Of a stretch of DNA of 64,000 nucleotides, positions 1 to 32,840 are shown piece after piece. Position 1 is the stretch's first letter. Each line of letters begins with the position of its first letter. The stretch comes from Caecitellus pseudoparvulus (taxonomy: Eukaryota; Protista; Bigyra: Bicosoecida), in assembly GCA_965644315.1 (NCBI GenBank), contig CBFFRQ010000019.1, forward strand, positions 372,001 to 436,000. Reading direction: 5' to 3'. Position numbers and translations under genes: made by a program. Below the pieces are notes generated by a model. It was given only the letters and a program-made list of their open reading frames with translations, had not been told where the DNA came from and ran no database searches.

Positions 1-2
1 TA

Positions 3-320
3 AGAAAAATAGAGGGTGTTTTAATTACACCAGGACAACCGCCAATATATACGATTGAAGGTATAGATAATACAGGATACACAAGAAACCAGCTTTTATT
101 AATAGAAGAACCAGAAGAGGAACCAGAAGAAGACGAAGATAATAAACGATACGAAGTAGAGAAGATAACAGGAGAGAAAAAGATTAAGAATAAGAAATAT
201 TATCGTATAAAATGGAAGGGATACAAACAACAAACATACGAACCAGCCCAGACCATAAATTCACAAATACCAGAATTAGTAAAAAATTATAAAAAATATA
301 AAAACTCTAAGAAAAAATAA
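3..320 (+). CDS. C-terminal part of a retroviral-type (rve) integrase with chromodomain (5' end outside the window; not in the ORF track)
   Basis: Own translation of frame 3: RKIEGVLITPGQPPIYTIEGIDNTGYTRNQLLL...YEVEKITGEKKIKNKKYYRIKWKGYKQQTYEPAQTINSQIPELVKNY...stop at 318-320. YEVEKI...Y.IKWKGY...TYEP is a chromodomain, and the preceding PGQPP.Y...YTRNQL segment resembles the C-terminal region of Polinton/mavirus-type integrases. The catalytic DDE core is not visible. Confidence 0.75.
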   Translation, partial: RKIEGVLITPGQPPIYTIEGIDNTGYTRNQLLLIEEPEEEPEEDEDNKRYEVEKITGEKKIKNKKYYRIKWKGYKQQTYEPAQTINSQIPELVKNYKKYKNSKKK

Positions 321-351
321 TTCTTTAAAAATATTTTCTAAAGCATGATAT

Positions 352-813
352 ATGGATTTTATAAAACCAACTCAAAAATATATAAATAGTCTTAATAAAT
401 CAAGAGATGAAGGATTTAATAAAGAACGCCAAGTTTTAAAAAGACTTAATAAAATAACCAAAAATAAATTTTATAAAACAACAGATTTTTTTAATCATTT
501 TGACTTTATAACAAAAGACGGAAAATATAATATAGAATTAAAAAGCAGAAACAACACATATAACAAATACCCAACAACCATAATAAATATAGAGAAGATA
601 AGATATATAAAAGCCGCTAAATTAGAACATCCTAAAAAACGTTTTTATTTCTTATTTAATTTCTGCGATGGTTTATACTACATTAAATATAAATCAAAAG
701 TATTTGATAAATTCAATATTAAAAATATATGTAGGCATGATAGAGATATTGTAAAACTTCATTTAGAAATACCCATTTCAAAACTAAAACCAATAGAAAA
801 GATTAAAATATAA
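352..813 (+). CDS. PD-(D/E)xK-superfamily nuclease-like protein
   Basis: E...HFDF...IELKSR motif arrangement; 153 aa, basic; TCTA motif upstream. Confidence 0.65.
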   Translation: MDFIKPTQKYINSLNKSRDEGFNKERQVLKRLNKITKNKFYKTTDFFNHFDFITKDGKYNIELKSRNNTYNKYPTTIINIEKIRYIKAAKLEHPKKRFYFLFNFCDGLYYIKYKSKVFDKFNIKNICRHDRDIVKLHLEIPISKLKPIEKIKI

Positions 814-847
814 ATATATTTTAATAATGTTTATTAAAATATATTTA
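811..847. terminator. Perfect 17-bp AT-rich hairpin between convergent genes (giant-virus-type polyadenylation hairpin)
   Basis: TAAATATATTTTAATAA-TGT-TTATTAAAATATATTTA, starting at the stop codon of the nuclease gene. Confidence 0.75.
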
Positions 848-945
848 AAATTAGTTTTATTTTTGTCTCTTATTTTTTGTTTTTTACTTTTTTATTTAAC
901 ACCTTAAGAGCGTCTTAATAAAAACCCTATATTTTTAAGTCGTTT

Positions 946-1509
946 TTAGAACTTATTTGATAATTTAAAAGTAGCTTTTATAACGTTGTATAATTCATCA
1001 TAAGAAGAAAAGATATTTAATAAATCTTGACCGCAGCTGCTTATTAATTCTAATCTGTTAGATTCAACTTTTTTTAATTCATCAGCGGGGATATTTTGCG
1101 TGATTTTTCTAAATAAATCATTAGAAGGGGTTAAGCATACGATTGCTTTATCTTCAACACCAAGAAATTTAGCCTCATCAATAGAAGAAACAACCAATAA
1201 TAATGAGTGGTCTTTTAAATCTTTTCTAAGTTTATTAACATATTCTTTAGCTTTTACTAAATAATTTACGTTAGAATTTACCGAGTTTTCACGTGGCACA
1301 CTTTCGCCAACATCAACTAAAAGAACTTTATTATTGCCTTTTAATTTTTCGCACATTCTACTTTTTCCAGTTTTAGAGCTCATCACAACAGCCCCAAATT
1401 TTACTGCTTTAAATTTTTTAGCTCTTCCATTTTTCCAACAATTATAAGAGCTTTTAACGCCTAACGATACTAAGGCGCCGCCTACCATTAATCCTGTTTC
1501 TAAATTCAT
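946..1509 (-). CDS. Hypothetical protein with an N-terminal hydrophobic segment and a degenerate P-loop (kinase-like)
   Basis: GAVVMSSKTGKS followed by LLVDV; TCTA motif upstream of the ATG. Confidence 0.5.
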   Translation of the reverse strand: MNLETGLMVGGALVSLGVKSSYNCWKNGRAKKFKAVKFGAVVMSSKTGKSRMCEKLKGNNKVLLVDVGESVPRENSVNSNVNYLVKAKEYVNKLRKDLKDHSLLLVVSSIDEAKFLGVEDKAIVCLTPSNDLFRKITQNIPADELKKVESNRLELISSCGQDLLNIFSSYDELYNVIKATFKLSNKF

Positions 1510-2406: not shown

Positions 2407-2703
2407 CTAGACAAAAAAATATTTAAAATTTTTAAAAAACATTTCATTATATGTTTTAACGGCATCTTTTAAATTATCATCATCACCCCATAATAAAAAG
2501 AATGATAAATAACCCGGTCTTTTAGGGTCATACGTTAATAAATCTTTTTCGTGTCTTTTTCTGTAATTTTTACGTTTTCTTTTATCTTTATGGTCTATAT
2601 ATGTTTCTCCTCCATTATATCCAAAATGTGCTTTAGTTCCATCATTAAATATAGCGACGAAACGTTTATTTTTTCTATTACTTTTTTTAATATCAATAAT
2701 CAT
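2407..2703 (-). CDS. Small basic NCLDV-type protein (DUF5754-like)
   Basis: KKSNRKNKRF...HFG...YIDHKD...Y.KRH...PGYLS..LLW pattern; paralog at 20538-20813. Confidence 0.75.
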   Translation of the reverse strand: MIIDIKKSNRKNKRFVAIFNDGTKAHFGYNGGETYIDHKDKRKRKNYRKRHEKDLLTYDPKRPGYLSFFLLWGDDDNLKDAVKTYNEMFFKNFKYFFV

Positions 2704-2721
2704 TATAAAAACATATATAAT

Positions 2722-4620
2722 TTAATTTGATATTCTATCCATTTTATATGTTATTTCAACGTCAATATTTTCATTTATATTGCTTTTCACTGCCACATTC
2801 CACGTAGGAAAATTACCCGCTGAAGATACCGTCATAACCTTAGATAATGTAATTTGTCCGTAGTTTTTAGCTGCTTCAGCTTCCATAAATATTCGCCCGA
2901 TTGTGTTATCCTCACCTGAAGCAGAATTAGGAACGGTCATTCTACCAAATACAACGGCTGTTGTTTGTCCTGGTCCGTCTATTACTAAATTAAAAGTAGC
3001 ACTTAAAATATATGTTCCTGTTTGGTATGATTCAACGGGAATTGTAGCATCCATAGTAAATGTTTTCCAAGTGTTAGCGGTGAAAACATCATTAAGAGCT
3101 ATTTTATAACTTTGAAAATTTGCTGTTCTTGCTAATAATTGCCCGTAATTTATGGCGTGATATTGTGTTGTTCCATCCTTTAACCATTCAATATTCCTAT
3201 TACCCATATCTAATTTAACGCTTGTTTTAATTTCTGTATTAGAAACTGAGAAACGCTGAACCTCACCGCCTCCATTATTACAAAAGAAGGCGTGTTCTGA
3301 ACTTGAACCACCGGACATATTAACATATCTTGTTTCGTTATTTAATTGTTCTATCCAATATGAAACCAAAGAACCATCAGGACGAATTAACGTTAATTTA
3401 TCAGCTTGAATCTCTCCGACATCTTCAATATTATTACCGTTTAAATTAATATTATTGTTAAAACTGCTACCACCCGCCACACTATCAACATAGGCTTTAT
3501 TTGCTCCATCTGTCCCTATTGTAGGAGTTGCCACATTTTCGATTTTATTATTATTCATATCTAATAAAGCTTCTATGCTTGTAATTCCTGAAAATGTTTT
3601 ATTTCCTGCTACACTTTGATTTCCTGTAAGTTTGACGCAGGTATTAATTAAATCATCAACATATTTTTTATTGGTTAAGCAATCATCATTATTAGCGGTG
3701 TCAGTTTGGAAAATACGGCAACTAGGACTTAAATAAATAGCCCCTGTGTTATAAAAATATGTTAGTTGTTTATTTGGGTCGTTTCCAATTCTAAATTGAG
3801 CGGTTGAGGCGTTTTTAGCTGATAAAGTTAAAATTTTATTATTATCGTCTTGATTTAATAAAACTTCAGTCCCTCCAAATCCTAAATTTCCGTTAATATT
3901 TAATTCATTATCGCTATTATATGTTAAATCCATTGTTGATGAACCATTATCAAAAATTAAAGAAGGGTTAGAGGCTTTATCAAGGGTGACCGTTTCATAT
4001 GTTGGATTAGTAGGGGGTATTGGTGCTGGAGTGCCTTGTGTCGAGTTACCGAGTATCACAAATAAACGATTTGAATTAGTGGGCGGGTCTTCTAATAATA
4101 CCTCTTGAGCGGTTGAAGTTTTACAATTAGCATGTTTAAATTTAAATGTTGTATTAAAATTTGCGTTATTTTTAGCCGATAAATAAATATATTTTGTATT
4201 CGCTGGAAATTGTAGGGCGTCCCCTATGACTTGAATATCGATTAAATGATCGGTGTTTAAAATATCCGCTTCATTACTAGATGAAATATAATTTTCGTCT
4301 TTATCGTAATAATCCAACCTGACATTTAAATTTAATTGTTCGTTTTCTGTTGTTTCAATTTCGCAATAATAATTTAAATTTAATCGTGAATATGTCCCAA
4401 TATCGTCAGGAGCTTTTAAAACATCTTTTAAAGGTTGAGAAAAAAACATAGCTTTATAAGCAGTGTTAGCGTTGATAGTATCTTGAGTTCCAAAAGCAGT
4501 CCCCGCAGTTGAAAAAAAATTAATAGCTTCTTTTAATCTTGCCACATTTGATGTTGTTTGTGGTTCATTATATACTATTAATTTATTCATTTCGTATTGA
4601 TTCTTAACATTATTAAACAT
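2722..4620 (-). CDS. Putative virion fibre/adhesin A
   Basis: Trimeric-fibre neck-like motifs LTNKKYVD, ENVATPTIGTDGANKAYVD and HAINYGQL, plus LTGNQSVAGNKTF; directly downstream of the MCP. Confidence 0.7.
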   Translation of the reverse strand: MFNNVKNQYEMNKLIVYNEPQTTSNVARLKEAINFFSTAGTAFGTQDTINANTAYKAMFFSQPLKDVLKAPDDIGTYSRLNLNYYCEIETTENEQLNLNVRLDYYDKDENYISSSNEADILNTDHLIDIQVIGDALQFPANTKYIYLSAKNNANFNTTFKFKHANCKTSTAQEVLLEDPPTNSNRLFVILGNSTQGTPAPIPPTNPTYETVTLDKASNPSLIFDNGSSTMDLTYNSDNELNINGNLGFGGTEVLLNQDDNNKILTLSAKNASTAQFRIGNDPNKQLTYFYNTGAIYLSPSCRIFQTDTANNDDCLTNKKYVDDLINTCVKLTGNQSVAGNKTFSGITSIEALLDMNNNKIENVATPTIGTDGANKAYVDSVAGGSSFNNNINLNGNNIEDVGEIQADKLTLIRPDGSLVSYWIEQLNNETRYVNMSGGSSSEHAFFCNNGGGEVQRFSVSNTEIKTSVKLDMGNRNIEWLKDGTTQYHAINYGQLLARTANFQSYKIALNDVFTANTWKTFTMDATIPVESYQTGTYILSATFNLVIDGPGQTTAVVFGRMTVPNSASGEDNTIGRIFMEAEAAKNYGQITLSKVMTVSSAGNFPTWNVAVKSNINENIDVEITYKMDRISN

Positions 4621-4686
4621 ATTATTAATATAACATATATTATTTTTTTTATTATTTAATATTTCTTAAACAATAAATTAAATTAT

Positions 4687-6510
4687 TTAATTTAATAAAT
4701 TTTGAAGGTTATTTTTTTTACGTCTTCCACCTGTAGTTTTTCCGCCTCCTGTATTTACACCAAGCCCTAATTTATCTAATACGTCGGCTGCTACTTTTCC
4801 TTCCATACCTACATCACGTAAAGCACTTTTACCAAGTTTAGATGCTGCTTTATATGCGTCATGATTTACAATGGATTTTAAACCAGAATTTAATTTTTTC
4901 CAGAAATTAGAACCGCCAATATAACGAGTAAGGCTCATAGTGTCGCCGCTTACAGGTGCTTCAATAACGTCAGCTTCAGAAAGGGGAGCAGTACTGACAG
5001 CACTAGTGCCATTTTCACTCACGAAAAAGCCACTATTAACAGCCATTGTATATAAAATAGGGTTATTAGCAGTTAAACCACTATTATTCACACAATTGAC
5101 ATCAAACTGCATTGTATAATTACCACCAACACCACTAGAAGTGCCAGCAGGTAAAGCAAAATCAACACCAGGACGGAGGATTAAGAAAGAACCAGATAAA
5201 CCAATTTTACCGTTGCCATTTTGACCAGTCCAGGCTTGCCCTAAATATTCGTTATAATCAACATCTAATCCGTTATTTTGTGAAATGTGGAATAATTGCT
5301 GGGTAGTCATTGAAGATAAAATACCGGATACATTATTAAAATTTAATCTAATATCTTTTACAGGTAAATAATAATCGCCAACATCATTATTGCCAGTTAA
5401 TGAAGGTTTAGCATAAATGACAAGCAGATCGGGGATTTGAGAAAGTGTGATAGTTTGAGAACGTAAATTAACACTTGCTCCAGGTGCTACAGTTGTTGAG
5501 CTTGTTGAAATGTAGCGGGGATACTCCATATAAGGCACAACGCTTCTTTTAGGTAAAGGTAAAGACAGAGAAGGAGAACGGAAAACACAATTTACGACGG
5601 CATTTTGAAAGGGGTTTTGACCGTTTAAGCTTACGGGAGAATAAGAGAAATTCCAATCGTCTAATTCAATATGATTTGTGGTATATCTTAGCATTCTTGA
5701 AACATCACCCACATTAAACATTAATTTAATGTTATTCAGCCCATACAAACCTACATTATCCTCTTGACTTTCATTGAAAATAAAGGGTGATAAAATTAAA
5801 TTCTCGGTGACTGTTAATTTAAAATATACGGTTTGACTAAAAGAGGTGGCGTTTCCTGCCTGAATTTGCCATTGATAATCTGCGGCTGTTGCTGGTTCTC
5901 CGTTTTCTTTAACCCATTCAAAACCTTGAAAAGCACCATTTGGCACGTTATCATTATTTAAAGCTTCTTGATATCCTTTTAATACACTGTTGGAAAGTGT
6001 GCGGCTGTCATTATATGAGACGTATTTATCAAGCATAGAAGGCGTGGTTCTGCTTTTATGATTTCTTTTAGAAGCTGACATTTTTAATATTTCATAAATT
6101 ACATCTTGAGAATTCACGGAAACTGTGGAATTATTAATGGTGGCTGTGGTTGTGCTCATACAAGATTGAAAGGGATAAGCAGCAGGGGCGATTGAATCAC
6201 CGGGGGTGAAAACTGGCTGTCCGTTTAAATCGGGGTTTTGAACTGTTCCTGGGAATGCTTCTGGGTTACCGCTTTTAGATGTAATTGTAGCGGTAATTTT
6301 ACCCATAATCTCAACACTTACGGGCATATTTCTATCCATAAACATATTTTGGCTTGGTGCTGTAATATTAAAAGATACTGAAGAACTGGAAGCGGTGGCA
6401 GCTTGAAAAGGTGTATTGCTGATGCTTACTGCTCCTTCATTTACGGCATATCTTGGTTGTGGTTGAACGATTCTAGCGTCCATAACTTTAATTTTTTCAA
6501 TACTAGACAT
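4687..6510 (-). CDS. Virophage major capsid protein A (double jelly-roll)
   Basis: 607 aa. DARIVQ..PRYAV..GA, FNI.APS.N.FMDR, YPF.S...T.TATIN, PYMEYPRY, SQTITLSQIPD and the C-terminal RYIGG/SNFW..L amphipathic tail parallel the Sputnik/YSLV MCP layout. Confidence 0.93.
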   Translation of the reverse strand: MSSIEKIKVMDARIVQPQPRYAVNEGAVSISNTPFQAATASSSSVSFNITAPSQNMFMDRNMPVSVEIMGKITATITSKSGNPEAFPGTVQNPDLNGQPVFTPGDSIAPAAYPFQSCMSTTTATINNSTVSVNSQDVIYEILKMSASKRNHKSRTTPSMLDKYVSYNDSRTLSNSVLKGYQEALNNDNVPNGAFQGFEWVKENGEPATAADYQWQIQAGNATSFSQTVYFKLTVTENLILSPFIFNESQEDNVGLYGLNNIKLMFNVGDVSRMLRYTTNHIELDDWNFSYSPVSLNGQNPFQNAVVNCVFRSPSLSLPLPKRSVVPYMEYPRYISTSSTTVAPGASVNLRSQTITLSQIPDLLVIYAKPSLTGNNDVGDYYLPVKDIRLNFNNVSGILSSMTTQQLFHISQNNGLDVDYNEYLGQAWTGQNGNGKIGLSGSFLILRPGVDFALPAGTSSGVGGNYTMQFDVNCVNNSGLTANNPILYTMAVNSGFFVSENGTSAVSTAPLSEADVIEAPVSGDTMSLTRYIGGSNFWKKLNSGLKSIVNHDAYKAASKLGKSALRDVGMEGKVAADVLDKLGLGVNTGGGKTTGGRRKKNNLQNLLN

Positions 6511-6604
6511 ATAATATAATTTAGAAAATATTTTTAAAAATAAACCCTTATATTTTTTTTTAAAAAATCACGCATTTTGTAAAAAAAAACTAAACTAGAT
6601 ATTT

Positions 6605-7741
6605 TTAATATTTAGGTTGAAATAAAAATTTCATAGATACATTAGATAAATTAGATAATTTAAGAGGCACAAGTTCCCCCGTTAATCTATATTTCCAGTA
6701 AATATTAACGTTAATATTTCTTATAGGTTGTTTAGAATTTGTAAGAGATACGAAACGATATTCAGCACCCGGGATATATGATATATAATCCTTATAGTCG
6801 TAGGCATCGTCTAGAGTTAAACTAATATCAGTAATGATAGGTTCAAAATTAGAAATTGAAGAAACGGCATTAGCATTGTTAGAATTACCAAATTTCACGG
6901 GCTGGCTTACACCTTCACTTATAATAGGTAATAATGAAGAAGTAAAAACAATAGAAGATATAGGGCTCCAATATGTGCCAAGGCTTACGGCTTCTTGTTC
7001 TATTTTAATATAATCTACGCTGTTTAATGTGATAGAGTTTAAACCCTGATAATTACGGGGGATAATTCTATATTGTTTAGTTTCGTCTAAATCGTTGTAT
7101 TCATGCGGATAATGTGATAATAAATTATATAAATTAGAATTAAAAAAGAACGAAAAACCGCCGTCATTATCTGCGGGATAATAAATATCAAATTTTTTAT
7201 TTGCGTTATTATATACTATAAAAGGGCTTATTAAATCTGTAAATGCTGGATAATCAACTTTTATTAATGCGTTTAATTGAGCTATTGAATATGTTATGGC
7301 TTCATTTACTAATTTTATAAAATGGTCGTATGTGTGGCAGTAATAATATTCTTGAGATGCGTTTTGTCCTTCTGTTTCAAAATTTGAAGGTGCTGATAAG
7401 CTTGAATCGTTGCTTTCCCATATTACGGGTTGCGTGTATTCGTATTCATTGCCGCCTATATGATTATATTTAACTGTTATTTTATATACGGTTTTATTTG
7501 GGTTTGTTTGTCCTTCTTCAATTACTGGTATAAATAAAGGTAAATCATTAATACCGTTCATAGTAAAACGAATAATAGACATTTTATATTTTGAGGCATC
7601 ATTAATTAAGGGTACGTCTCGTGTTTCGGAAAAACTGGCTATTGGGTCGTTAATCTTACCTTGGCTCGTGCTTCTTCCGTTGATAATATCAATATTATAA
7701 TAAATATTTTTATCTTCTTGATACATTGTAGAATTTAACAT
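6605..7741 (-). CDS. Virophage minor capsid (penton) protein A
   Basis: NIYYNIDIIN, F.ETR..P.I, Y.MSIIRF, LP.FIP, WSPISSIVFTSSLLPI, IITD, Y.P.AEYR motifs; adjacent to the MCP. Confidence 0.9.
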   Translation of the reverse strand: MLNSTMYQEDKNIYYNIDIINGRSTSQGKINDPIASFSETRDVPLINDASKYKMSIIRFTMNGINDLPLFIPVIEEGQTNPNKTVYKITVKYNHIGGNEYEYTQPVIWESNDSSLSAPSNFETEGQNASQEYYYCHTYDHFIKLVNEAITYSIAQLNALIKVDYPAFTDLISPFIVYNNANKKFDIYYPADNDGGFSFFFNSNLYNLLSHYPHEYNDLDETKQYRIIPRNYQGLNSITLNSVDYIKIEQEAVSLGTYWSPISSIVFTSSLLPIISEGVSQPVKFGNSNNANAVSSISNFEPIITDISLTLDDAYDYKDYISYIPGAEYRFVSLTNSKQPIRNINVNIYWKYRLTGELVPLKLSNLSNVSMKFLFQPKY

Positions 7742-7774
7742 TATTAATATATTAGATAAAATATTTTAATAAAG

Positions 7775-8359
7775 TTATTTTTTTAATAAATCATGAGTAA
7801 ATTTGGTGACTACGTCGTCAAAGTCTTTTAAATTCTTATCTTTTAATGATTTCATTAATTTTTTATAATCTTCTAAAGATAATTTATATAAAAGTAATCT
7901 TGCCGCTGTATGTCTACCACATGTTCCTATGCCTTCTCCTTTTTTTTGGAATTGGTATCTATTATATTCTAAACCATACCCCGCCTGGTCTATCATTCTT
8001 AATAATCGGGGTTCGTCTTGTCCTGTTTGTCTTTCTACTTCTTCGTCTGCGTTTAAATTTTCAGTTGCTGTGTCTGGTGGGTGTCCGTAAGGGTCGAAAT
8101 GCTCTATAATATTTCCTTTTTTAATTAATCCTACCCAATGCCCCACATTAGGGTCAGACGTTAGATATAATAAAATACAACGCCCCTTTTTATCGAAAAT
8201 TTCGTCAATATGTCTATAATTATATAATTTATCATAACTTATAATATTTGTATCATCATTAAATAAATATTCTAAATCACTATTTGATAAATAATAACGT
8301 TTAAGCTGTTCTCTTAATTCTTCGTTATGTTCTGGGTCAGATTTTTTAGATTTTTTCAT
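7775..8359 (-). CDS. Virophage maturation cysteine protease A (adenain/Ulp1-like)
   Basis: GHW...HFDPYG...FQ...TCGRH catalytic His/Asp/Gln/Cys pattern. Confidence 0.92.
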   Translation of the reverse strand: MKKSKKSDPEHNEELREQLKRYYLSNSDLEYLFNDDTNIISYDKLYNYRHIDEIFDKKGRCILLYLTSDPNVGHWVGLIKKGNIIEHFDPYGHPPDTATENLNADEEVERQTGQDEPRLLRMIDQAGYGLEYNRYQFQKKGEGIGTCGRHTAARLLLYKLSLEDYKKLMKSLKDKNLKDFDDVVTKFTHDLLKK

Positions 8360-8398
8360 TATAATATATTATATTATAAAAATATCATATATTATTTT

Positions 8399-9187: not shown

Positions 9188-9202
9188 TATTAAGATTTAG
9201 AA

Positions 9203-9296
9203 AAAAAGATTTACAAAAACTTAAAAAAACTATATATCATGTTGTAATTTCTAGATATTTTATTATAAGTTTTTTAATGTTTTTGTAAATCTTTTT
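9203..9296 (-). terminator. Long imperfect inverted repeat between the 617-aa gene and the ATPase gene
   Basis: AAAAAGATTTACAAAAACTTAAAAAAACT (9203-9231) pairs with AGTTTTTTAATGTTTTTGTAAATCTTTTT (9268-9296); a counterpart is conserved at 27225-27316. Confidence 0.65.
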
Positions 9297-11148: not shown

Positions 11149-11219
11149 ATATAAAATAAATTATATAAATGATATAATATTTTTTAACATTATATTATTT
11201 AGATATTTATAATAAATAT

Positions 11220-20537: not shown

Positions 20538-20813
20538 CTAATTGAAGAACCTTTTATTATATGCATCTAAAGCATCCTTTAAATTGTCTTTTTCACCCCA
20601 TAACAAGAAAAAACTTAGGTATCCTGCTCGTTTAGGGTCTCGTGTTCCAAGGTCGCTAACGTGTCGTTTATGATAGTTTAGCCTTTTCTTTTTGTCTTTG
20701 TGGTCTATATATGTGTTTCCTCCTGCTTGTCCGAAATGTGTTTTAGTTCCATCATCAAATATAGCCGTAAATCTTTTATTCTTCCGTGTGCTGGGTATAA
20801 TATCTATAATCAT
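20538..20813 (-). CDS. DUF5754-like small basic protein B
   Basis: Clear ortholog of 2407-2703. Confidence 0.75.
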   Translation of the reverse strand: MIIDIIPSTRKNKRFTAIFDDGTKTHFGQAGGNTYIDHKDKKKRLNYHKRHVSDLGTRDPKRAGYLSFFLLWGEKDNLKDALDAYNKRFFN

Positions 20814-20830
20814 ATATTATATATTACATT

Positions 20831-22735: not shown

Positions 22736-22811
22736 ATCTATATAATTAACATATATTTTTTATTATTCAGTTAATACAAAATAATAAAATACTTTTTTAT
22801 AATTTAATTTT

Positions 22812-24584
22812 TTAAAGTAAGTTTTTTAAATAGTTTGAATTTTTACGCCGTCCTCCTGTGGTTATTCCTCCTCCTGCTGCTCCTCCTGTATTCTTACCAT
22901 ATCCTAAAACTTCAACAACATCGGCTGCCCTTTTGGCTCGGTCATCTCCTGAGGCTCTAGCAAGGCTTTTTCCTAATTTCGCCATTTCTTTCGTTACTGG
23001 AGATGAAGCAATTTTTTTTAATGTGCTGTTAAGTTTGCTCCAAAAATTAGACCCCCCAACATAACGTTTTAAGCTCATTGTGTCGCCTTGGACTGGTGCT
23101 TCTATAACTTCGCTTTCTGTTAATGGTGCGGTAGTAATTGCACTCTGTCCGCCTTTAGTTACAAAGAAGCCACTATTTACAGCAACTAAATATAAAATGG
23201 GGCTTGTTACTGCTTCCGCCTGTTGGTTTTTTACTTCGACATCAAATTGAAGCGTGTAATTTCCGCCCACACCTGACGCAGCGCCATTGTTTAGAGCGAA
23301 ATCGACCCCTGGGCGAACGACAAGGAAACCGCCAACTAGGGGAACTTCTACAGCTGTTCCATTACCGCTCCACGCTGTGCCGTCGTATGTGTTATAATCC
23401 ATATCTAAGCCGTTACGTTGTGACATATGGAATAATTGCTCTTTAGTCATACTGGACATAATACCGCTTACATTATCAAACTGCATACTAATTGATTGAA
23501 TAGGGAGATGATAATCACCGACTTTATTATCTGTAATGTTTGGTTTTACATAAATCAGCATTAAATCAGGAATTTGCGAAAGTGTCACAGTTTGACTTTT
23601 TAATTTTGCGGTTGCTCCTGCTCCAATTGTTACGCCTGTATTATTGCTCACAAAACGGGGGAATTCCATATATGGGACGATGTTCTGTTCAGGTAAAGGA
23701 ATAGATAAACTAGGAGTTCTAAAAACGCAATTAATACGAGGGTCAATAAATGGGTTACTTCCTGTAAATCTAACGGTTGAAATTTCTAAATCATCAGGAT
23801 TATAACAACGTAGAAGGCGTGAAGGGTCGCCGACATTTGCTTGAATACGAACATTATTAATGCCAAAAAGTCCGCAGGAGTCTTCCTCTGATTCATTCCA
23901 AATAAAGGGACTAACCATTAAATTTTCGGTGACGTCTAATTCAAAATATAAAACTTGCGTTCCGTTAGCGCCTTTAGCTGCGTCCCATACTGGTTGAGTG
24001 CCTAGGGGGTTACCATTTGCATCAACCCATTTAAACCCTGTAAATGCTCCGTTGGGTTGGTTATCATTTGAGAGGGCTGAACCGTAGCCATTTAATACGC
24101 TTGCTGGTTGGGTTTTACCATCATCATATTTTAAAAATTTATCAAGCATTACAGGGGTTGTTTTGCTTTTATGGTTATGTTTTGTTGCGGTGATTCTTTC
24201 CATTTCATATAAAATATCCCTTACGTTGCTTGTGGTGGTTGCATTATTAATAGTTGCGCTAAGTGTGGTAAATAGTGAATGTAAAGGATACGCACAAGAT
24301 GCTAAATGAACCCCATAATAAATCCCTATTACAGCTCCTGCGGCTCGTGCTACTGCTGTCGTTACCGTAAATTCGCCACGAATTTTGGTAGAAATTGGGA
24401 CTGGTCTATCCATAAATACGTTTTGATTTGGTGCGTTAATATTAAAAGCAAGAGCGGAAGAAGAGCTGTTATTAGCCTGAAATGAGGTATTTGAAACGCT
24501 TAAAGCTCCTTCATTTACTGCATATCGTGGGGTTGGTTGCACGATGCGAGCATCCATAATTTTAACTTTTTCTACTTGAGACAT
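22812..24584 (-). CDS. Virophage major capsid protein B
   Basis: Ortholog of MCP A (43 of the first 60 residues identical by hand count); RYVGG/SNFW maturation site. Confidence 0.93.
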   Translation of the reverse strand: MSQVEKVKIMDARIVQPTPRYAVNEGALSVSNTSFQANNSSSSALAFNINAPNQNVFMDRPVPISTKIRGEFTVTTAVARAAGAVIGIYYGVHLASCAYPLHSLFTTLSATINNATTTSNVRDILYEMERITATKHNHKSKTTPVMLDKFLKYDDGKTQPASVLNGYGSALSNDNQPNGAFTGFKWVDANGNPLGTQPVWDAAKGANGTQVLYFELDVTENLMVSPFIWNESEEDSCGLFGINNVRIQANVGDPSRLLRCYNPDDLEISTVRFTGSNPFIDPRINCVFRTPSLSIPLPEQNIVPYMEFPRFVSNNTGVTIGAGATAKLKSQTVTLSQIPDLMLIYVKPNITDNKVGDYHLPIQSISMQFDNVSGIMSSMTKEQLFHMSQRNGLDMDYNTYDGTAWSGNGTAVEVPLVGGFLVVRPGVDFALNNGAASGVGGNYTLQFDVEVKNQQAEAVTSPILYLVAVNSGFFVTKGGQSAITTAPLTESEVIEAPVQGDTMSLKRYVGGSNFWSKLNSTLKKIASSPVTKEMAKLGKSLARASGDDRAKRAADVVEVLGYGKNTGGAAGGGITTGGRRKNSNYLKNLL

Positions 24585-24635
24585 ATATATATAACTTTTA
24601 GAAAAAAAAAATATATATTATATATTAAAAAAAAT

Positions 24636-25754
24636 TTACTTTTTAGAAAATAATAATTTCATAGTTACATTTCCTAAATTACTTAATTTTATAGGTATTA
24701 GTTCCCCTGTTAATCTAGCTTTCCAAAATACATTTATATTTATGCTTCTTATAGTTTCTGAATTATTGGATAAGCTTATCCATCTTGGCGGACCTTGTGG
24801 AATGTAGCTTATAAATTGTTTATATTCGTATGCATCGTCAAGGGTTAGGGCTATATCTGTTATAATACTTTCATAATTACTGCTCGAATCTGTGGGGGTT
24901 GTTGTGTTACTGCTTCCAAAAGTTATAGGCTGGGCGACTCCTTCAGGAATAATTGGTAAAATTGAACTTGTAAAAACTAAAGAAGACACAGGCGACCAAT
25001 AAGAACCAAGGCTGATAGCCTCTTGCTCAACCTTTACATAATCTGTATTATCGCCCCCTATATCTAGCGTTACACTGTTTAACCCTGCGTTATTTCTTGG
25101 TAAAATTCTATATCTTTGGGCGTTGTTGCTGTCGTCTAAATCGTGAGGATAAAAGCCTATTAGGTTATATAAATTACTATTAAAATATATCTTTAATTTC
25201 AAGTCATCCAAAATATAAAAATCAAATTTCTTTTTTGAAGGTTCATAATTTAAAAATGATTTTTTTAAATCTGTAAATGTTGGGTCATCAATTTTAACCT
25301 GTGCGTTTATATCTGTTATAGCACTTGATAAAGCATTATTAATTAAGCTTACGAAATGTTCGTATGAATTACAATAATAATATTCATACTCCATTTTCTG
25401 CGTTGTGAATGGGTCATTTGGTGGGGTTTTGCTTGCGTCTTCAGGTTGCCATATTACGGCTTGTGTGCTTTCGTAAAGTGTTAAATTAGTGTGTAAATAA
25501 GCAATTTTGACAGAATAAACGGTTTTATTTGGGTTTGTTTGATTTGGTTCAATATGAGGAATAAATAAAGGTATATCTTGAACGCCATTCATAGTGAAAC
25601 GCATAACCGCCATTTTATATTTTGATATATCTCTTATTATCGGTTGGTCTCTTGTTTCGTTAAATGTTGCTCTAGGGTCATTTACTATCCCTTGGCTTGT
25701 TGTGCGACCGTTGATAATATCAATATTATAATAAATATTCTCTTCTTGATTCAT
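24636..25754 (-). CDS. Virophage penton protein B
   Basis: Ortholog of 6605-7741. Confidence 0.9.
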   Translation of the reverse strand: MNQEENIYYNIDIINGRTTSQGIVNDPRATFNETRDQPIIRDISKYKMAVMRFTMNGVQDIPLFIPHIEPNQTNPNKTVYSVKIAYLHTNLTLYESTQAVIWQPEDASKTPPNDPFTTQKMEYEYYYCNSYEHFVSLINNALSSAITDINAQVKIDDPTFTDLKKSFLNYEPSKKKFDFYILDDLKLKIYFNSNLYNLIGFYPHDLDDSNNAQRYRILPRNNAGLNSVTLDIGGDNTDYVKVEQEAISLGSYWSPVSSLVFTSSILPIIPEGVAQPITFGSSNTTTPTDSSSNYESIITDIALTLDDAYEYKQFISYIPQGPPRWISLSNNSETIRSININVFWKARLTGELIPIKLSNLGNVTMKLLFSKK

Positions 25755-25772
25755 ATATATAATAGTAATATT

Positions 25773-26357
25773 TTAATTTTTAATTTTAGTTATTAAATCG
25801 TGCGTTAATTTCGTGACTATATCGTCATAATCTTTCAAATATTTATTTTTTAATTCATTCAATAATTTAGAATATTTCTTTAATGGTAATTTATGAAATA
25901 TTAGCCGTGAGGCGGTGTGCCTTCCACAAGTTCCTATATCATCGCCTAATTTTTGGAATTTTTTATTATTATATTCTAAATTATATCCTGCTTCTTGAAT
26001 CATCTTTAATAATTTTGGTTCGGTTTGTCCTACTTTTTCGGCTACGTCTGGAGGTGTTCCTAAATTTTGGATTGATGAATCAGGGGGGAAGCCGTAAGGG
26101 TCAAAATATTCAATTGTATTATTTCGTTTTATTATGCATACCCAATGCCCCACTGTTTCGCTTTGTGTAAGATATAATAAAATACAACGCCCTAATTTAT
26201 CGAGTATTTCGTCAATATGTCTAAAATTATAAAGTTGATTATATGGGTATATGTTAGTATCAGGATTTAAAATATAATCTAAATCGTCATTACTTAAATA
26301 TTGAGCCTTTAAATATTCTCTAAATTCTTTATTTTTTTCTACATCTTCACCGTTCAT
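25773..26357 (-). CDS. Virophage maturation cysteine protease B
   Basis: GHW...YFDPYG...FQ...TCGRH. Confidence 0.92.
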   Translation of the reverse strand: MNGEDVEKNKEFREYLKAQYLSNDDLDYILNPDTNIYPYNQLYNFRHIDEILDKLGRCILLYLTQSETVGHWVCIIKRNNTIEYFDPYGFPPDSSIQNLGTPPDVAEKVGQTEPKLLKMIQEAGYNLEYNNKKFQKLGDDIGTCGRHTASRLIFHKLPLKKYSKLLNELKNKYLKDYDDIVTKLTHDLITKIKN

Positions 26358-26404
26358 TTTATATATATAATTATAAATATAAAATTAAATTTCAATTAAA
26401 ATTA

Positions 26405-27184
26405 TTAATCGGTATGGAGTAAATATGCACTGTTTGAAGATAATATAAAATTTGGATAAATACAAAAAACACAAGCCCACCTTCCCAATTTCTTTAATTG
26501 TTTTACTTGTTCTTTATCACAATTGCCATAATTTTGAAGTAAATATCCCAGTTGATGAGAGCTTGAGTTTTGAGGGAAAATTACAATATGTGTTGATTCA
26601 TTCAAAATTAAACGTGTTTTTTTATAGTTTGTTAAGTTGTGCGCTATATAGCAAAGGCTCATATTTTTATGACGCCCCATAATGCATATATCATCAATAA
26701 TTTTTAATACCTCGTTTAAAATTGGCTTTTCTAAAGTTTCAAAATCATCAAAAATATAAAAGCCTTCGTTATCTTCGTTGTTAATATCAAATGCTTGAAT
26801 AAAATCCTCAATATCGACCCTTGTTATAAAATCTAATTCATCCAGTGTTTCATCTTTCATAAGTTTTGAAATTAAATAAATTGGTAGTTCAGGATTTAAT
26901 CTATGATAATTATTTATTATTATTTTTGCTTGGTATGATTTACCAGAGCCAGAAGCACCAGCAATATAAAAAATATCACGTTTTCCTTTCTTTGTGTTGG
27001 GTAAAATATTATATATTAAATCCGCTGGTAAATCAATACGTTTTTTTCCGTGGTGTTTATCACTGAGACATAATAATTTATTAAAATTCTTGTTATTTTC
27101 ATCACCTTTAACTATTGCTACAGGATTAAAAGAACCCTTTTTAATTTTTGGGCTGTTATAGTCTAGCAATTCAAAGCCAACCAT
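26405..27184 (-). CDS. Packaging ATPase B
   Basis: GASGSGKS, YIFDD, MGRH. Confidence 0.92.
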   Translation of the reverse strand: MVGFELLDYNSPKIKKGSFNPVAIVKGDENNKNFNKLLCLSDKHHGKKRIDLPADLIYNILPNTKKGKRDIFYIAGASGSGKSYQAKIIINNYHRLNPELPIYLISKLMKDETLDELDFITRVDIEDFIQAFDINNEDNEGFYIFDDFETLEKPILNEVLKIIDDICIMGRHKNMSLCYIAHNLTNYKKTRLILNESTHIVIFPQNSSSHQLGYLLQNYGNCDKEQVKQLKKLGRWACVFCIYPNFILSSNSAYLLHTD

Positions 27185-27224
27185 TATATATTTATAGTTT
27201 ATATATTTTTTATAAATTTTTAAA

Positions 27225-27316
27225 AAAAAGATTTACAAAAAGTTAAAAAATGTTATTGTTTTAGTGTAGGCTTAGCGGTGGGTTAAATAGTTTTTCAACT
27301 TTTTGTAAAACTTTTT
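27225..27316 (-). terminator. Long inverted repeat orthologous to 9203-9296
   Basis: AAAAAGATTTACAAAAAGTTAAAAAA pairs with TTTTTCAACTTTTTGTAAAACTTTTT. Confidence 0.65.
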
Positions 27317-29207
27317 ATTTAAATATTCCAAGAGCTTTACCCATTGAATCTCCGACATCTTGCATCCAATTTATCAAACCTCCAGAACCAGCACCAACAA
27401 TAAATTTTTGTGTGAATTGTTCAGGGCTTAAATAGCGTCCTTGTCCAACTAGTGGGCGGTCGTCGTCGCTTTCTTCTCCTGTTCCATCTCGGAGCATACG
27501 TTGGACATCGTCAATAAGTTCCTGTGGGGGTGGTGTGTCATCATCCGAGATAGAATCAAAATAACCGAGTGACTCTTGTAATGCTGTTATTTCATCAATT
27601 AATTTTCTTCGTTGGACTCTTTCCGCTATTGATATATCTTCTCCTTTTTCTTTCATATGTTTGCTGAGTTTCTTTTGAAGTCCTTTTAATTTCTTTTCTT
27701 TTTCTTCATCTGTTAAATATTCCAATGGGTTTAATTTCGCATCTCGTATATCAATAGCTCTTTTTAATTCTCTAACCTGTTGTTGGAGTCCTTCACGCTC
27801 CTTTTTTTTACCCTTTCCTCTTGCTTTCTTTCCGTATCTTGTAATATGATTTAATAATCTTTCTCTTGCATCCTTCAATTGTTGCTCTAGTTGAACTATT
27901 TCAAACTCTACCCTATCTCTTTGAACGTCTTCAAGTTCGCCGACTTGTTCCGCCTCTGTGTCTGTTAGTTCTTGTGTTTCTCCGTCAATATCTTGTAAGA
28001 TTCTTTGCATATCATCAACCAACCTTAAGCTTGCTTGTTTTTCTGCATCTTTATTGTCTTCTAAAAATTTTAAGCCTTCTCTTAATCGTTTAATTCGTTG
28101 TTTTTGCTCAAATTGTTTTTCTTTATCTTGTTGTTTCTTTGCTCTTTGTTCTTCCTCTCTAATTGCTTTCTTTAAATCTGCTTTAAATTTTCTTAAATAT
28201 TCTTGAACGTCTCTTCTGTCCTTTAAGTTTGCTATATTATGCTGGGTTTCTTTTGTTATTCTTCCTGTAGTTCTCCCTTGGGTGCTTCGTCTCGTTGTTG
28301 CTTTCACATAATTTTCAATTTTTTTATATGCACTAACTGGCAGTAAATCTTTTAAATCATCTAATCCATTTTTAACCTCTTCATTAATTCGCTTCATATC
28401 TTCATTAAATAAATCATTCTTTTTGGCTTCTATAATTTGGTTAAAATCGCCGTCAAATTTTTGCTTTCTGTCTGATGGGTTCATATTATAGCTATTTATT
28501 AGGGATTGTAAAACTAAATATATTTTAAAAATAACTTCATAATAATTAACACGCTCCAAATAGTCTAAATATGTGGATGCTACTTTTTTATATACTACTG
28601 GTTCTCCTGTCCTTGATTGTTTTATATCCTTTCCGAATAAATCACGACCTATAAATAATTTCTCCATATTTCCTAAATAATTATCTAAATGTGTTTCTGT
28701 TATTTGGGCGTATCTTTCTAATGAACTTATTGATAATCCTAAACCATAAGCTTTTAAATTTCCTAACACCTGTTTTGCTTCTTTGGCGTTATTTGTTACT
28801 TCCTTTAAAGAAAAATCAACGTTGGAAAGCTCACTAAAAAATAATTCTAATGATGTTTTTACAGTTTCAGGCGTTTCTATATCATCACGTTTTGGAGGTG
28901 GAAGCCCTAAATTTAGCGTTTTTAGTTGTTCTGCTCGTCGTTTTAATTGCTCTCTTACTTTCGTATTATCACTAAGAACACCACCTCGCATATTTCCTAA
29001 TACCATATTATAATTTAATTGATTACTGTTTCCGCTGAAGCTATCAAGCCTATTAAATGAGCCCTGAGGTTGTGGTTTAGGTAATTTATATAAACCTTTT
29101 AAAAATCGTTCTTCATTTTTAGCGGTTTGTTTTAATCTATTTAATACGTTTCTTTTTGAATAATTCGCATATTTCAAATGAAATAAATCTCTTTCTTTAT
29201 TACTCAT
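27315..29207 (-). CDS. Conserved virophage protein B (coiled-coil C-terminal half)
   Basis: N-terminal half orthologous to 9295-11148; contains MRGG/VL, VGQG and VGAG motifs. Confidence 0.75.
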   Translation of the reverse strand: MSNKERDLFHLKYANYSKRNVLNRLKQTAKNEERFLKGLYKLPKPQPQGSFNRLDSFSGNSNQLNYNMVLGNMRGGVLSDNTKVREQLKRRAEQLKTLNLGLPPPKRDDIETPETVKTSLELFFSELSNVDFSLKEVTNNAKEAKQVLGNLKAYGLGLSISSLERYAQITETHLDNYLGNMEKLFIGRDLFGKDIKQSRTGEPVVYKKVASTYLDYLERVNYYEVIFKIYLVLQSLINSYNMNPSDRKQKFDGDFNQIIEAKKNDLFNEDMKRINEEVKNGLDDLKDLLPVSAYKKIENYVKATTRRSTQGRTTGRITKETQHNIANLKDRRDVQEYLRKFKADLKKAIREEEQRAKKQQDKEKQFEQKQRIKRLREGLKFLEDNKDAEKQASLRLVDDMQRILQDIDGETQELTDTEAEQVGELEDVQRDRVEFEIVQLEQQLKDARERLLNHITRYGKKARGKGKKKEREGLQQQVRELKRAIDIRDAKLNPLEYLTDEEKEKKLKGLQKKLSKHMKEKGEDISIAERVQRRKLIDEITALQESLGYFDSISDDDTPPPQELIDDVQRMLRDGTGEESDDDRPLVGQGRYLSPEQFTQKFIVGAGSGGLINWMQDVGDSMGKALGIFK

Positions 29208-29270
29208 ATATATTAAATAAGGATATTTTATTTTTATTGTTATATTAATTAATTAACGATAAAATAAAAT

Positions 29271-29912
29271 TTAATCTAATAAATGATTTTGTTTTATGTA
29301 TTTTGAAGCTTCCCCAAGGCTCATATTATGCTCTTTCATCAGTTGTGAAACTAATTTATTCCGTTTTTTTTGTTTTTCTGATAATTTTCTGGGTTTTTTA
29401 GCTTTTTTCATTTTGCCATATCCGACTGCCTCTAAACCTGCTTTAATATGTTGTCCATATGGAAGAGCTGGAGAAATGGCTTTTATTACCTTTCCTGCGG
29501 GCTTCCACACCATATCGAACCCTTTCTTAAAGTCTTTCCAAAAGCTACCACCTTTAATATGTCCGAGGTGCTTCTGTAATTCTTCCGCATATTTTTCGCC
29601 TAATTTCTGACCCCCTAAAAATTCACCCTGCTCACGGTCTGGAATTTTAGCCTTTTTAGCTCGTTTTCCTCCTACGGTTCTTTTTGTGCTTCCTAATAGA
29701 CCCTCGAGGCGTTTATCTGTATATGGTTCGGTGTTTAATTCGCCATAACTTCGTCCTCCGTAAGTGCGGTTATGTTGTGATGGTAAGTGAATAAGTTGCG
29801 GAAAATATACTGTATGACCTTTACCCCCTTCAACTGTTGAATTTTCAAGGGTTCGTGATTGTTCCATATTTAATAATAAATCCCTTAGTTCTTGGTTTTC
29901 TACTTGTGACAT
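29271..29912 (-). CDS. Small basic core protein B with amphipathic helix
   Basis: Ortholog of 11220-11831 (GGSFWKDFKKGFDMVWKPAGKVIK). Confidence 0.75.
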   Translation of the reverse strand: MSQVENQELRDLLLNMEQSRTLENSTVEGGKGHTVYFPQLIHLPSQHNRTYGGRSYGELNTEPYTDKRLEGLLGSTKRTVGGKRAKKAKIPDREQGEFLGGQKLGEKYAEELQKHLGHIKGGSFWKDFKKGFDMVWKPAGKVIKAISPALPYGQHIKAGLEAVGYGKMKKAKKPRKLSEKQKKRNKLVSQLMKEHNMSLGEASKYIKQNHLLD

Positions 29913-29941
29913 ATAATATATATAACTATATTTTTTTTTCC

Positions 29942-31923
29942 TTAGCGTAAAATAAATTCTTTAGTGTGAATATTTAAAATATTTTTTAAGATATCTTTTA
30001 ATTTATTTAGGTTTTGCTCCATTGTTTGAGGTTGTTTTAATATTGTTCTTATAGTTTGTAAAATATTATTTTCCTTTTTTAAATAGGAATTTACACTGTA
30101 TATATTAGATAACCTATAAATAAAACTTTCTATCGTATTTTTTATTTTATCGTTATTTGTTCTTGTTTCTAAATTTATTAACGTTAAAATAGCTACAATA
30201 TCATTTATTACACTGTATAATATGCCAACTTCACCATTAAAAAAATTTGTTAATTCTTGTAGTCGTTTTAATGTTTTTTCTTTTATTTTGTCGCTTTTAT
30301 TATATGTGTAAATATGTTTTAGTTTGGAGTATTCACGTTTTAAAGCCTTATAATATTCACCTTTCATTATATACGTTTTTATTTGGTCGTTTAGTGTGTC
30401 TTTAATATTTACTCTATAATTATTTATTCTTTTATTTTGCTTATCCCTTAATTCGTATATTATGGAAAAATCCATATATTTATTTCTTGTGAATCCTAAA
30501 GCGTCTATTTTTATTAATCCATCCGTTTTAAATGCTTGTTTTAGTGTGATTGTCTCGCCGTTTAATAGTGTTTTTTTTCCGTTTAATACTTCATCAGCAG
30601 TCCAACGCATAATATGAAATCTTAAAGCGTCTTTTATTTCTGCTAATTCTGCAGGTGTTGGATTTTCCTTAATTAATTTATATAATTTGGCTTTTTCTGT
30701 TTCGCTTAAAAATGATAACTTATTTTTTATATCTTCCTTTATTTGGCTTGGTTTGTATCCTATTAATTTATTATTTTTTTTATAAATATTGGGTAAAATT
30801 TCAAATGGTCTATATTCACCGATTTTTATATCATCATAAATTAAATATATATTTTGTGCTTTTATTAATTCTTTTATTTTATTTTGAAATTCTTTAACAA
30901 ATTTATTTAAATTATCAACTTTAACGACTTCATATAAATCAAAATCTGAGGGGTAAATAGTCGCTTTTATTGCAGACGAGCCCATAACCTCAACATTATT
31001 TATATTAAATGAAAGAGCTTTTATTATTTCTATTGTATCGATTCCGTAATTTTGAGGCTTTTTTTTTGTTAATACTGACCCAGCACCCGTTATTTTATTC
31101 CACCAAGCCCCAAGGCGTGTGGCTACCTTTGACACTGGCGATAAATAAGAAGCGTTTTTTTTAAATTATCGTAAATCTCGGATATATCCTGATATATAAA
31201 TTTTGTTGTTCTGTCACTGCTTAAATTATTAGCTTCTAAAATTGATAATATGAAATTTTGGCAATTATTACTAAATGCATCATAATCAAAATATTTTTTA
31301 TCGCCCATAAATTCCCTTGTTTTTTTTAACATTTGATTTAAATTTAAGCCTCCTTGATATTTTTCAACTGGTGTGCTTTCGCTGTGTTTATTTTGTTTTA
31401 CATTAAAAGACACGTTTATTTCTGCGTTTTTCTCAACCACTACATAACGCCCATTAATAGAACAAATTAAAGATAAATGAAAAAAATTATCAAATCCGTA
31501 ATTATGCATAAGTTCCTTAAAATAACCAAAAGAAAGCGTATTTAATATATTAATTAAAGTTTTTTGAACTGGTGTGCGAACTATCATAATATTAGTTATT
31601 GGTTTATCGCCTACTTCTTTTAATGTGCGTTTTGTTTCGTTCGTGTAATCTGTGCGGTAATTAAAAGGCTTTGTTATGTTATCTTCAATCCTATCTATTG
31701 GTTTAAATTTATCTTTTACTTTATTATAACCTTTCTTTAAAAATGAAAATGTTGAACTTGCACCTTTACGGAAAAAATCACCGATTCCTGAGCCGTGGAA
31801 GCTACTTAATATAATTTGTTTTAATTCTGCTTTTTTTATTTGTTTTGGTGGATATTCTCCATAAAGCTCTTTATATAATCCTTTTAATTCCGCTTTTGTT
31901 AAATTATACGCTTGAGCTTTCAT
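29942..31923 (-). CDS. HeH/peptidase/nucleotidyltransferase polyprotein B, split by a 1-nt frameshift at an A8 run (31155-31162)
   Basis: ORFs 31123-31923 and 29942-31135 together align end to end with 11831-13834; adding one A restores DNLKKNASYLSPVSKVATRLGAWW. Confidence 0.8.
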
Positions 31924-31977
31924 AATGTATATATATAATAGGTTGATAATTTATTTAAATAAAATATTTATTAATAC

Positions 31978-32181
31978 TTAATTTAAATTATTGTATTCTT
32001 TTAATAGTTCTACATATTCATTTATCTCGTGAGGTAAAAAATATATTGAAATTTGAGAATAAAAAAACGGACGGTTAATATCCATAAATCCACTAATGCT
32101 CTCATTAAATCGCTCTTTTAATGAAACAGTTTTTAAATATTGTTGATTGGTTTTTGAGATGAACTCCATATAATATCCCAT
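31978..32181 (-). CDS. Small hypothetical viral protein (67 aa)
   Basis: ATG preceded by ACTTAAAGATTTATTTAT on the coding strand; co-oriented with the module. Confidence 0.45.
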   Translation of the reverse strand: MGYYMEFISKTNQQYLKTVSLKERFNESISGFMDINRPFFYSQISIYFLPHEINEYVELLKEYNNLN

Positions 32182-32189
32182 ATAAATAA

Positions 32190-32840
32190 ATCTTTAAGTG
32201 GTTTTGTTTAAGTATAAAAATAATAAAAAAATAACAATTGAAGAGGCTTTTATTATATACTCTATTATTTATTTTATTGGTGATGCCTTTTAATATCTCA
32301 TTTGATGAAGCCTATTTTATTGATTGATTGACTGATTAATAAAATAATTAATTGACTGATTGAATAAATATATATTTTCCCTAGCACTTTTTATATCCCT
32401 AACTATTTTTATTTATTTTTTAAAAATTTATTGATTGAGCGAATGTATGAAGGTTTTATATGCTTTTAGAAGGTTATACTGTTTTAGGGTAAAAATAAGG
32501 GTTAAATCCCTAAAAAAAAAAAACTTTTTTTATTTTATTATTTCTGAAAGATATTATTTTTTTTTGGGGTAATTTTAAAATTTTAACCCTAAAAACTTTA
32601 ATTATTTATATTTTTATTATTAGGGACTAAATAAGGGATAAATCCCTAAAAAAGAAAAACTATTTTTATTTTATTATTTATAAAAAATATTATTTTTTTT
32701 TGGGGACTTTATATTATAATATTTTCTTACGAAAATCCTTTTAATTTCCCATATGAGAAATACCATAAAATATAATTTCGCAGAAATTAAATTACGTAGT
32801 AAAGGGAAGAATGAGAAATTAGCGGAGCGATTTTATTTCT
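32190..32840. repeat. Non-coding terminal region of element B with a ~78-bp imperfect direct repeat (about 32494-32570 and 32630-32706)
   Basis: ATAAGGGwTAAATCCCTAAAAAA...TTTTATTATTT...ATATTATTTTTTTTTGGGG occurs twice; TTGATTGATTG and TGATGAAG motifs. Confidence 0.7.

Follow-up and report, generated by a model that had tools for sequence, protein, structure and literature searches.

The DNA analysed here, called the window in the following, is a stretch of 64,000 nucleotides from the flagellate Caecitellus pseudoparvulus (assembly GCA_965644315.1, contig CBFFRQ010000019.1, positions 372,001 to 436,000 of the forward strand); all coordinates below refer to the window. Positions 1-32,856 are AT-rich viral DNA, which carries two virophage gene modules termed A and B; GC-rich host DNA follows. 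The gene content, the element end, a 5-bp target site duplication and the empty site were demonstrated directly. We consider it likely that the locus is a strain-variable insertion of two related virophage genomes, A probably nested in B, which was integrated by an rve-type integrase and would be inducible by a giant virus.

Gene content of the two modules

The modules of A (2,407-13,834) and B (20,538-31,923) are both on the minus strand and share one gene order: genes for 667-, 203- and 617-aa proteins, a packaging ATPase, a maturation cysteine protease, a penton protein, the major capsid protein (MCP), a fibre protein and a DUF5754 protein. With a predicted double jelly-roll MCP, an ATPase, a protease and a penton present, A and B are virophages. 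The MCPs of A (607 aa; 4,687-6,510) and B (590 aa; 22,812-24,584) score far above the cut-off for PF21915 (E 4e-59 and 1e-54 respectively) and PF22031 (E 4e-42 and 2e-40). A structure model of MCP A, with a predicted local distance difference test score (pLDDT) of 84, fits the capsid folds of Sputnik and mavirus. Both pentons pass PF21507, that of A (6,605-7,741) with E 1e-21. The protease of A (7,775-8,359) has the motifs GHWV, HFD and CG and is 47-64% identical to the proteases beside the closest MCPs; its ATPase (8,399-9,187), identified by Walker A and B motifs and by a tree, is 52-64% identical to its closest relatives. Penton, protease and ATPase of B lie at 24,636-27,184. Between A and B the protein identity is 54% for the MCP, 56% for the penton, 61% for the protease, 76% for the ATPase and 78% for the fibre protein.

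At four-fold degenerate sites the core genes of the two modules are 38-42% identical and hence saturated, which indicates that A and B are two different viruses; a recent tandem duplication of one virus is ruled out by these saturated silent sites. The corresponding value for the fibre and DUF5754 genes is 65-75%, and the A and B lineages have likely swapped the fibre region.

Beyond the shared module, A carries genes for replication and integration. A family B DNA polymerase of 650 aa (13,871-15,823, minus strand), likely protein-primed (pPolB), matches PHROG 11768 (E 4e-9) and has the motifs YDINSQYP, KxxLNxLWG and HTDG. An SF3 helicase (17,025-18,788, minus strand) is identified by PF19263 (E 2e-15), PHROG 1156 and its motifs; from the promoter position its start is likely at 18,749. 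The chromodomain at the left edge (3-320, plus strand; PF00385, E 2e-9) is the C-terminal end of an rve-type integrase, as judged by homology: it aligns with the C-terminal part of the rve integrase encoded by the related record G001 (33% over 73 aa, E 2e-9) and with the rve integrase tail of locus L114 (27%). An earlier model-made reading of the letters alone, referred to here as the sequence-only reading, had noticed the polymerase, the helicase and the chromodomain-tipped tail and had called the tail integrase-like, and all of this is borne out. Its view that these elements have a replication and integration kit of mavirus/Polinton type may apply to A; for B it fails, since no replication or integration gene of B was found in the window. 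Neither a second integrase nor a tyrosine recombinase was detected in the viral part of the window.

Integration into the host chromosome

The GC content per kilobase is 22-40% up to 33 kb and 55-72% beyond, with 21-31% in the element parts versus 64% in the host. This profile, the Pfam matches and the spliced host genes PreP and PELO agree with the earlier proposal that two virophage capsid modules are contiguous with a GC-rich, intron-bearing host genome. The proposed viral stretch is real, but its end had been put at 32,840. Mapping of short-read contigs from six runs (X1, X3, X5, X6, X7 and X9) to the window, starting from 18,500, placed the right end of the element at 32,856 and thereby bounded a right terminal region at 32,194-32,856.

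Run X1 contained three forms of the site. The right junction, in which the element end joins the downstream host DNA, had a depth of 88 and the left junction, in which the same 30-nt end, inverted, joins the upstream host DNA, a depth of 74; the empty site had a depth of 46, compared with 124 for the host. The right junction was found in X1 and X3. Five runs (X1, X3, X6, X9 and X7) contained the empty site, X7 with a contig of 10,235 nt that joins the window at 32,857. Among the matches listed for X5 was neither a filled nor an empty junction form. In X1 the letters TGCAC (32,857-32,861, plus strand) flank both sides of the insertion, as seen in the left junction, the right junction and the empty site, and hence form a perfect 5-bp duplication. 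The terminal inverted repeat is at least 30 nt long as demonstrated, 94 nt by depth, and may reach about 660 nt. Neither a second copy of the right end nor the left end of the insertion was found within the window.

Target duplication, inverted ends and empty site are present as in rve-integrating endogenous virophages, with the left junction coming from one run. In the marine metagenome X6 the right end of the insertion is also joined to other GC-rich flanks, and X7 carries B-like DNA (about 96%) elsewhere. The insertion is strain-variable; together with the perfect duplication at the target and the occurrence of the right end at further sites in X6, this polymorphism points to recent movement. 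The junctions and the empty site on short-read contigs also settle that the viral-host junction is a real integration and not an assembly chimera, as the sequence-only reading had assumed.

Two side observations concern this border. A second type of terminus in X1, X3 and X6 has the 30 letters of 32,763-32,792 and then diverges; it represents further virophage types in the same host. On the host side, a frame of 372 codons is open from the target site (32,857-33,976), and 27 upstream host letters keep it open, as judged by eye. The frame has no match in Pfam; it may be part of a host exon into which the element inserted.

Phylogenetic position

The MCP is 24% identical to that of Sputnik, 13-15% to that of mavirus and 28% to that of Qinghai Lake virophage in structure alignments by Foldseek. 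A phmmer search with the MCP recovered Sputnik and no mavirus chain at E≤1. The MCP is therefore not mavirus-like, which separates A and B from the Maviroviridae and the endogenous mavirus-like elements (EMALEs). It is also not Sputnik-like, with 24% identity as against 36-37% to the two core Burtonviroviridae members L043 and L070, so that A and B do not belong to the Sputniviroviridae, and it is of virophage type, not of Polinton type. The earlier assignment to a Sputnik/YSLV type stands in so far as the capsid lies outside the mavirus clade and the family of Yellowstone Lake virophage 5 (YSLV5) is the nearest; the Sputnik part reflected a Pfam name.

L043, L070 and YSLV5 are listed as core Burtonviroviridae in the classification table of Roux 2023 (PMC9952930), where L001, L101, L110 and L153 are BLAST-assigned to the same family and L107 belongs to the Gulliviroviridae; most other loci looked up are not in this table. 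Metagenomic relatives of the MCP reach 54% identity, and the closest long relative, L001, has 45-48%. Scanning viral contigs with one protein at a time, MCP A or the polymerase, gave no confirmed relative; alignments did find relatives. In a FastTree analysis of 145 MCPs, each with 480 aa or more, A and B group with L001, L087, L111, L119 and L152 at a support of 0.999. IQ-TREE analyses of a chosen subset (37 MCPs and 30 ATPases) gave the clade of A, B and marine relatives a support of 98 with the ATPase and 53 with the MCP. A and B are nested with the core member L070 in the MCP tree (85), and their clade is sister to the rest in the ATPase tree. These trees were rooted on one Gulliviroviridae sequence and were drawn from a set that leaves out four of the virophage families; the link to the family runs via the two core members, with the sequences of YSLV5 and of the Caecitellus family member outside the direct comparison.

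By these predicted proteins, A and B belong to a marine clade in or at the edge of the Burtonviroviridae, the YSLV5 family. As in that family, the MCP has about 600 aa, and a family member occurs in the genome of a marine flagellate. Two points weigh against full membership. The family cut-off is an MCP blastp score of at least 350 to the family references, assumed to be a bit score, and the scores against the two core members straddle it (352 and 354 for A, 327 and 355 for B); unlike the family, A and B also have a branch of their own with marine relatives. Moreover, the cluster of the close relative G001 is entered as 'Unclassified' in Roux 2023.

Replication and integration genes in related loci

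The set of A is not constant among its relatives. The rve domain PF00665 was matched in three of four related records, two of the three being near-identical. A polymerase like that of A occurred in one of the four (G001; 34%, E 5e-52), and an SF3 helicase like that of A in none, G001 included. A homologue of polymerase A was found in one of 155 loci (L119), although absence proves little there because the flanks were at most 10 kb. We conclude from these predicted genes that the replication and integration kit varies inside the clade of A and B. A PDB profile search bearing on the lineage of the pPolB and rve proteins gave no match. At 1,907-4,037 of L114, an rve integrase and a likely tyrosine recombinase face each other with their 3' ends; no A-type polymerase was found in this locus.

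The IMG/VR record G001 (locus L119, 21,279 nt) has a layout like that of A. It has an integrase with rve core and chromodomain, a pPolB and TCTA promoters, and its gene order is 667-203-617-ATPase-protease-penton-MCP-fibre-187 aa. Unlike A, it has no SF3 helicase match, its integrase is on the opposite side, its MCP is 37% identical and it comes without host DNA.

Promoters and the proposed life cycle

The motif TCTA is found 14-21 nt upstream of 12 of the 16 genes of A, while 2000 shuffles gave a mean of 0.77 and a maximum of 5; it weakens this count that the start codons were chosen by the analyst. On B's side the motif precedes one of 11 genes. In G001, 8 of 12 genes have it upstream, as counted by eye. 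TCTA is the late promoter motif of Cafeteria roenbergensis virus (CroV) and is described for mavirus and type 4 EMALEs, the other EMALE types being without it; CroV reactivates only type 4 EMALEs, and type 4 inhibits CroV (Hackl 2021, Koslova 2024). The TCTA motif, on its own, suggests that A depends on a giant virus, and because it is the CroV late motif, a CroV-like virus would be predicted to wake A, not B.

In the proposed mechanism, the rve integrase would have inserted the element at its inverted ends, as mavirus does, and A would replicate by means of the pPolB and the SF3 helicase that it encodes. The late transcription machinery of a co-infecting CroV-like giant virus would read the TCTA promoters of A, so that capsids of A would be made only during giant-virus infection. 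B, with other promoters, may respond to a different giant virus or be silenced, and its replication genes may lie left of the window or be lost. By analogy with Cafeteria, protection of the host population would be a likely side effect.

Comparison with known virophages

The sequence-only reading had taken rve plus PolB in a non-mavirus virophage for a sign of a chimeric lineage and the insertion for a direct host link of the YSLV5 clade. Both are preceded by published cases. In Paez-Espino 2019 (PMC6905037), six new virophages from distinct clades are reported to combine an rve integrase with PolB, and YSLV5 is united with an endogenous Bigelowiella virophage in clade 15 (Vp.cl15). Roux 2023 describes a member of the Burtonviroviridae ('aquatic virophages 2') inside a Caecitellus genome and gives the YSLV5 family as one without an isolate. 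Endogenous virophages are reported across many protists (Bellas 2023, PMC10120064), pPolB, SF3 helicase and rve are described as a common set (Wei 2026), and according to a preprint (Barth 2026) replication and capsid modules reassort across the group, with PolB travelling with DDE integrases. The gene combination and the endogenous host link of the YSLV5 family are thus already in print, and A and B add another case. Our literature search yielded no paper tied to A or B; the Caecitellus and Halocafeteria elements are known to us by description, with sequences uncompared.

The EMALEs and mavirus share with the insertion the rve, PolB and helicase genes, the order ATPase-protease-penton-MCP, a short target duplication, strain-variable sites and, in the case of A, the TCTA promoter (Hackl 2021, Koslova 2024). 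Target duplications are given as 3-5 bp for EMALEs and 5-6 bp for mavirus, and EMALEs begin with the helicase (Hackl 2021, Koslova 2024). The MCP there is distant from those of A and B, and reactivation and protection, which are predictions for A and B, are demonstrated in that system. The virophages of Halocafeteria seosinensis (bioRxiv 10.64898/2026.07.28.741278) are endogenous with non-mavirus capsids, some subtypes with rve and pPolB; tandem and nested copies are described, as are CroV-late-like promoters in one subclade. Unlike A and B, they are characterised as a clade confined to their host and without relationship to other virophages, a comparison made by description only. Provirophages of Bigelowiella natans (Blanc 2015, via PMC6723459 and PMC6905037) are likewise endogenous, low in GC, equipped with inverted ends and of the YSLV5 clade; unlike A and B they have an algal host, and their gene content lay outside the comparison.

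Alternative explanations

The visible sizes are more than 18.8 kb for A, which is cut by the window, 13 kb for B and more than 32.9 kb for the whole insertion; the size criterion for virophage genomes is 15-45 kb. As no second end lies in the window, A would, if the assembly is right, be inside an insertion bounded by B's end. A non-coding stretch next to the helicase (18,790-19,360) resembles the right terminal region. It shares 16 GC-containing 8-mers with 32,194-32,856, a number reached by none of 308 mostly coding control windows (mean 5.2), a hint that this stretch is A's own end.

Several facts speak against a nested pair of rve-integrated virophages. The DDE core of the rve integrase lies left of the window, and A's ends were not found in the window. 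The junction contigs consist of 30 element letters and 34 host letters, the element part being one letter short of the threshold of 31; the left junction is from X1 alone, and X1 and X3 may be the source samples. No short-read contig spans the join of A and B. In X7 the helicase-side spacer, the GIY-YIG gene between the modules and the B-side spacer seem to keep their neighbours at near single-copy depth, which fits equally well a stable composite of more than 33 kb. This composite would have one pair of inverted ends and a single polymerase, helicase and integrase for its two capsid modules. It would also explain why replication and integration genes are missing from B's part of the window, why a single target duplication bounds the whole insertion and why A and B have exchanged the fibre region. 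We nevertheless find it quite improbable. The relatives G001-G003 are only 19-21 kb, none of 154 loci compared has two capsid genes (one best match per gene was taken), the promoter classes of A and B differ sharply, the stretch beside the helicase looks like a terminal region, and nested and tandem virophages are known from Halocafeteria. A mobile form of the same idea, a single virophage with two divergent capsid modules and two promoter classes that share polymerase and integrase, is a conjecture to which we give little credence. If it were true, a single insertion could respond to two different giant viruses and would give a widespread marine flagellate a layered antiviral cassette with two targets.

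It is very improbable that the join of A and B is an assembly error, in which two endogenous virophages from separate loci were merged via shared repeats. The region 18.5-22.5 kb is multi-copy in all four runs mapped to it, which would favour such an error in the same way as the missing spanning contig does; yet all 30 bins are covered in each of these runs, no long near-identical repeat of A and B lies at the join, and the junction of B with the host is itself supported. Finally, A and B could be decaying passengers that form no virions and provide no defence, as the frameshift in one B gene and the lack of replication genes of B in the window may suggest; no RNA data set was among those listed as containing the sequence, which carries no weight either way. 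This is unlikely, given that all other long open reading frames (ORFs) of the viral part are intact and that the signs of recent movement described above are present.

The virophage pair links a marine clade that is mostly metagenomic to the genome of a protist in which the marks of recent integration are directly visible. If the host is cultured, it offers a system to ask whether inducible virophage defence reaches beyond mavirus to the YSLV5 family. The two promoter classes within one insertion and the host link of the marine branch are the points worth following.

Other genes and features

The first gene of A's shared order (11,831-13,834, minus strand) encodes a 667-aa fusion of a predicted papain-like domain and a nucleotidyltransferase of L544/Mg662 type. 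The model of its C-terminal 387 aa (pLDDT 94) matches Megavirus Mg662/L544 (E 3e-11), with a profile match to 4amq. The N-domain has no firm match in Pfam; a His and an Asn-Cys are invariant in 12 sequences, which we take to be typical of permuted papain-like enzymes. The family is widespread (4,417 representatives at E≤0.001, plus many virophage loci). In its homologue in B (29,942-31,923) a 1-base shift in an A-run, either a sequencing error or a real break, leaves two pieces of 266 and 347 aa. The genes for the 617- and 203-aa proteins (9,295-11,831, minus strand), without assigned function, lie upstream of the ATPase at the same position in B, L001, L087 and L119; the homologues in B (27,315-29,912) encode 630 and 213 aa. 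Each module has an AT-rich hairpin ahead of its ATPase gene (9,203-9,296 and 27,218-27,323); the two hairpins match, and their arms of 29-33 nt are 88-93% complementary. By analogy they may be transcript-end hairpins of giant-virus type, as described for Sputnik (PMC6723459).

No D-x-E occurs in the polymerase of A, and its proofreading motif seems lost. In the N-terminal part one Cys and one His are kept in L119 and may mark a candidate protease-like domain of the kind that pPolB terminal proteins have. The likely fibre or spike protein of A (2,722-4,620) has weak tail-fibre and head-decoration matches, and the adjacent DUF5754 protein (2,407-2,703) matches PF19058 (E 3e-15); both are found in B at 20,538-22,735, by Pfam and by homology to A. 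Further genes of A encode a PD-(D/E)XK endonuclease-like protein on the plus strand (352-813; PF24579, E 3e-6), with homologues in 18 virophage loci, and on the minus strand a 187-aa protein without assigned function (946-1,509; 29% to L117-L119, and also at the end of L119), a likely DNA adenine methyltransferase (1,573-2,397) with DPPY and EPxxGxxG motifs and no methylase match in Pfam, and a 261-aa protein with an internal repeat next to a 79-aa zinc-finger-like ORF (15,884-16,983).

Between A and B lie the GIY-YIG endonuclease gene (19,361-19,870, minus strand; PF01541, E 3e-7) and a non-coding spacer (19,871-20,537), whose first 390 nt (19,871-20,260) form an island of 53% GC within the AT-rich viral DNA. 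The island folds better than shuffled sequences (z -3.5 and -2.9). An Rfam search of 1-33,000 gave no match at E≤0.5, and the idea that 19.9-20.3 kb holds a group I intron or another known RNA was rejected on this ground. The internal spacers have no long alignable similarity to the right end.

The host DNA to the right is gene-dense and GC-rich with short introns, and host sequence is present in marine metagenomes. On contigs of 2-3 kb filed as Symbiodinium sp. KB8, one protein is 99% identical to the last exon of the spliced PELO gene, and others cluster with PreP at 90%. The next matches of PreP have 52% and 35%. Judging by the features of dinoflagellate genomes, we infer that these contigs stem from a co-cultured flagellate and not from a dinoflagellate. 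A block of lower GC (56%) at 52,009-55,530 contains a DDE_Tnp_4 transposase (53,572-55,530, minus strand, E 8e-7) and a second ORF (52,009-53,100, plus strand), and is likely a DNA transposon of Harbinger/PIF type. An intronless ORF of 885 aa with a weak AAA ATPase match lies in another block of slightly lower GC at 44,352-47,042.

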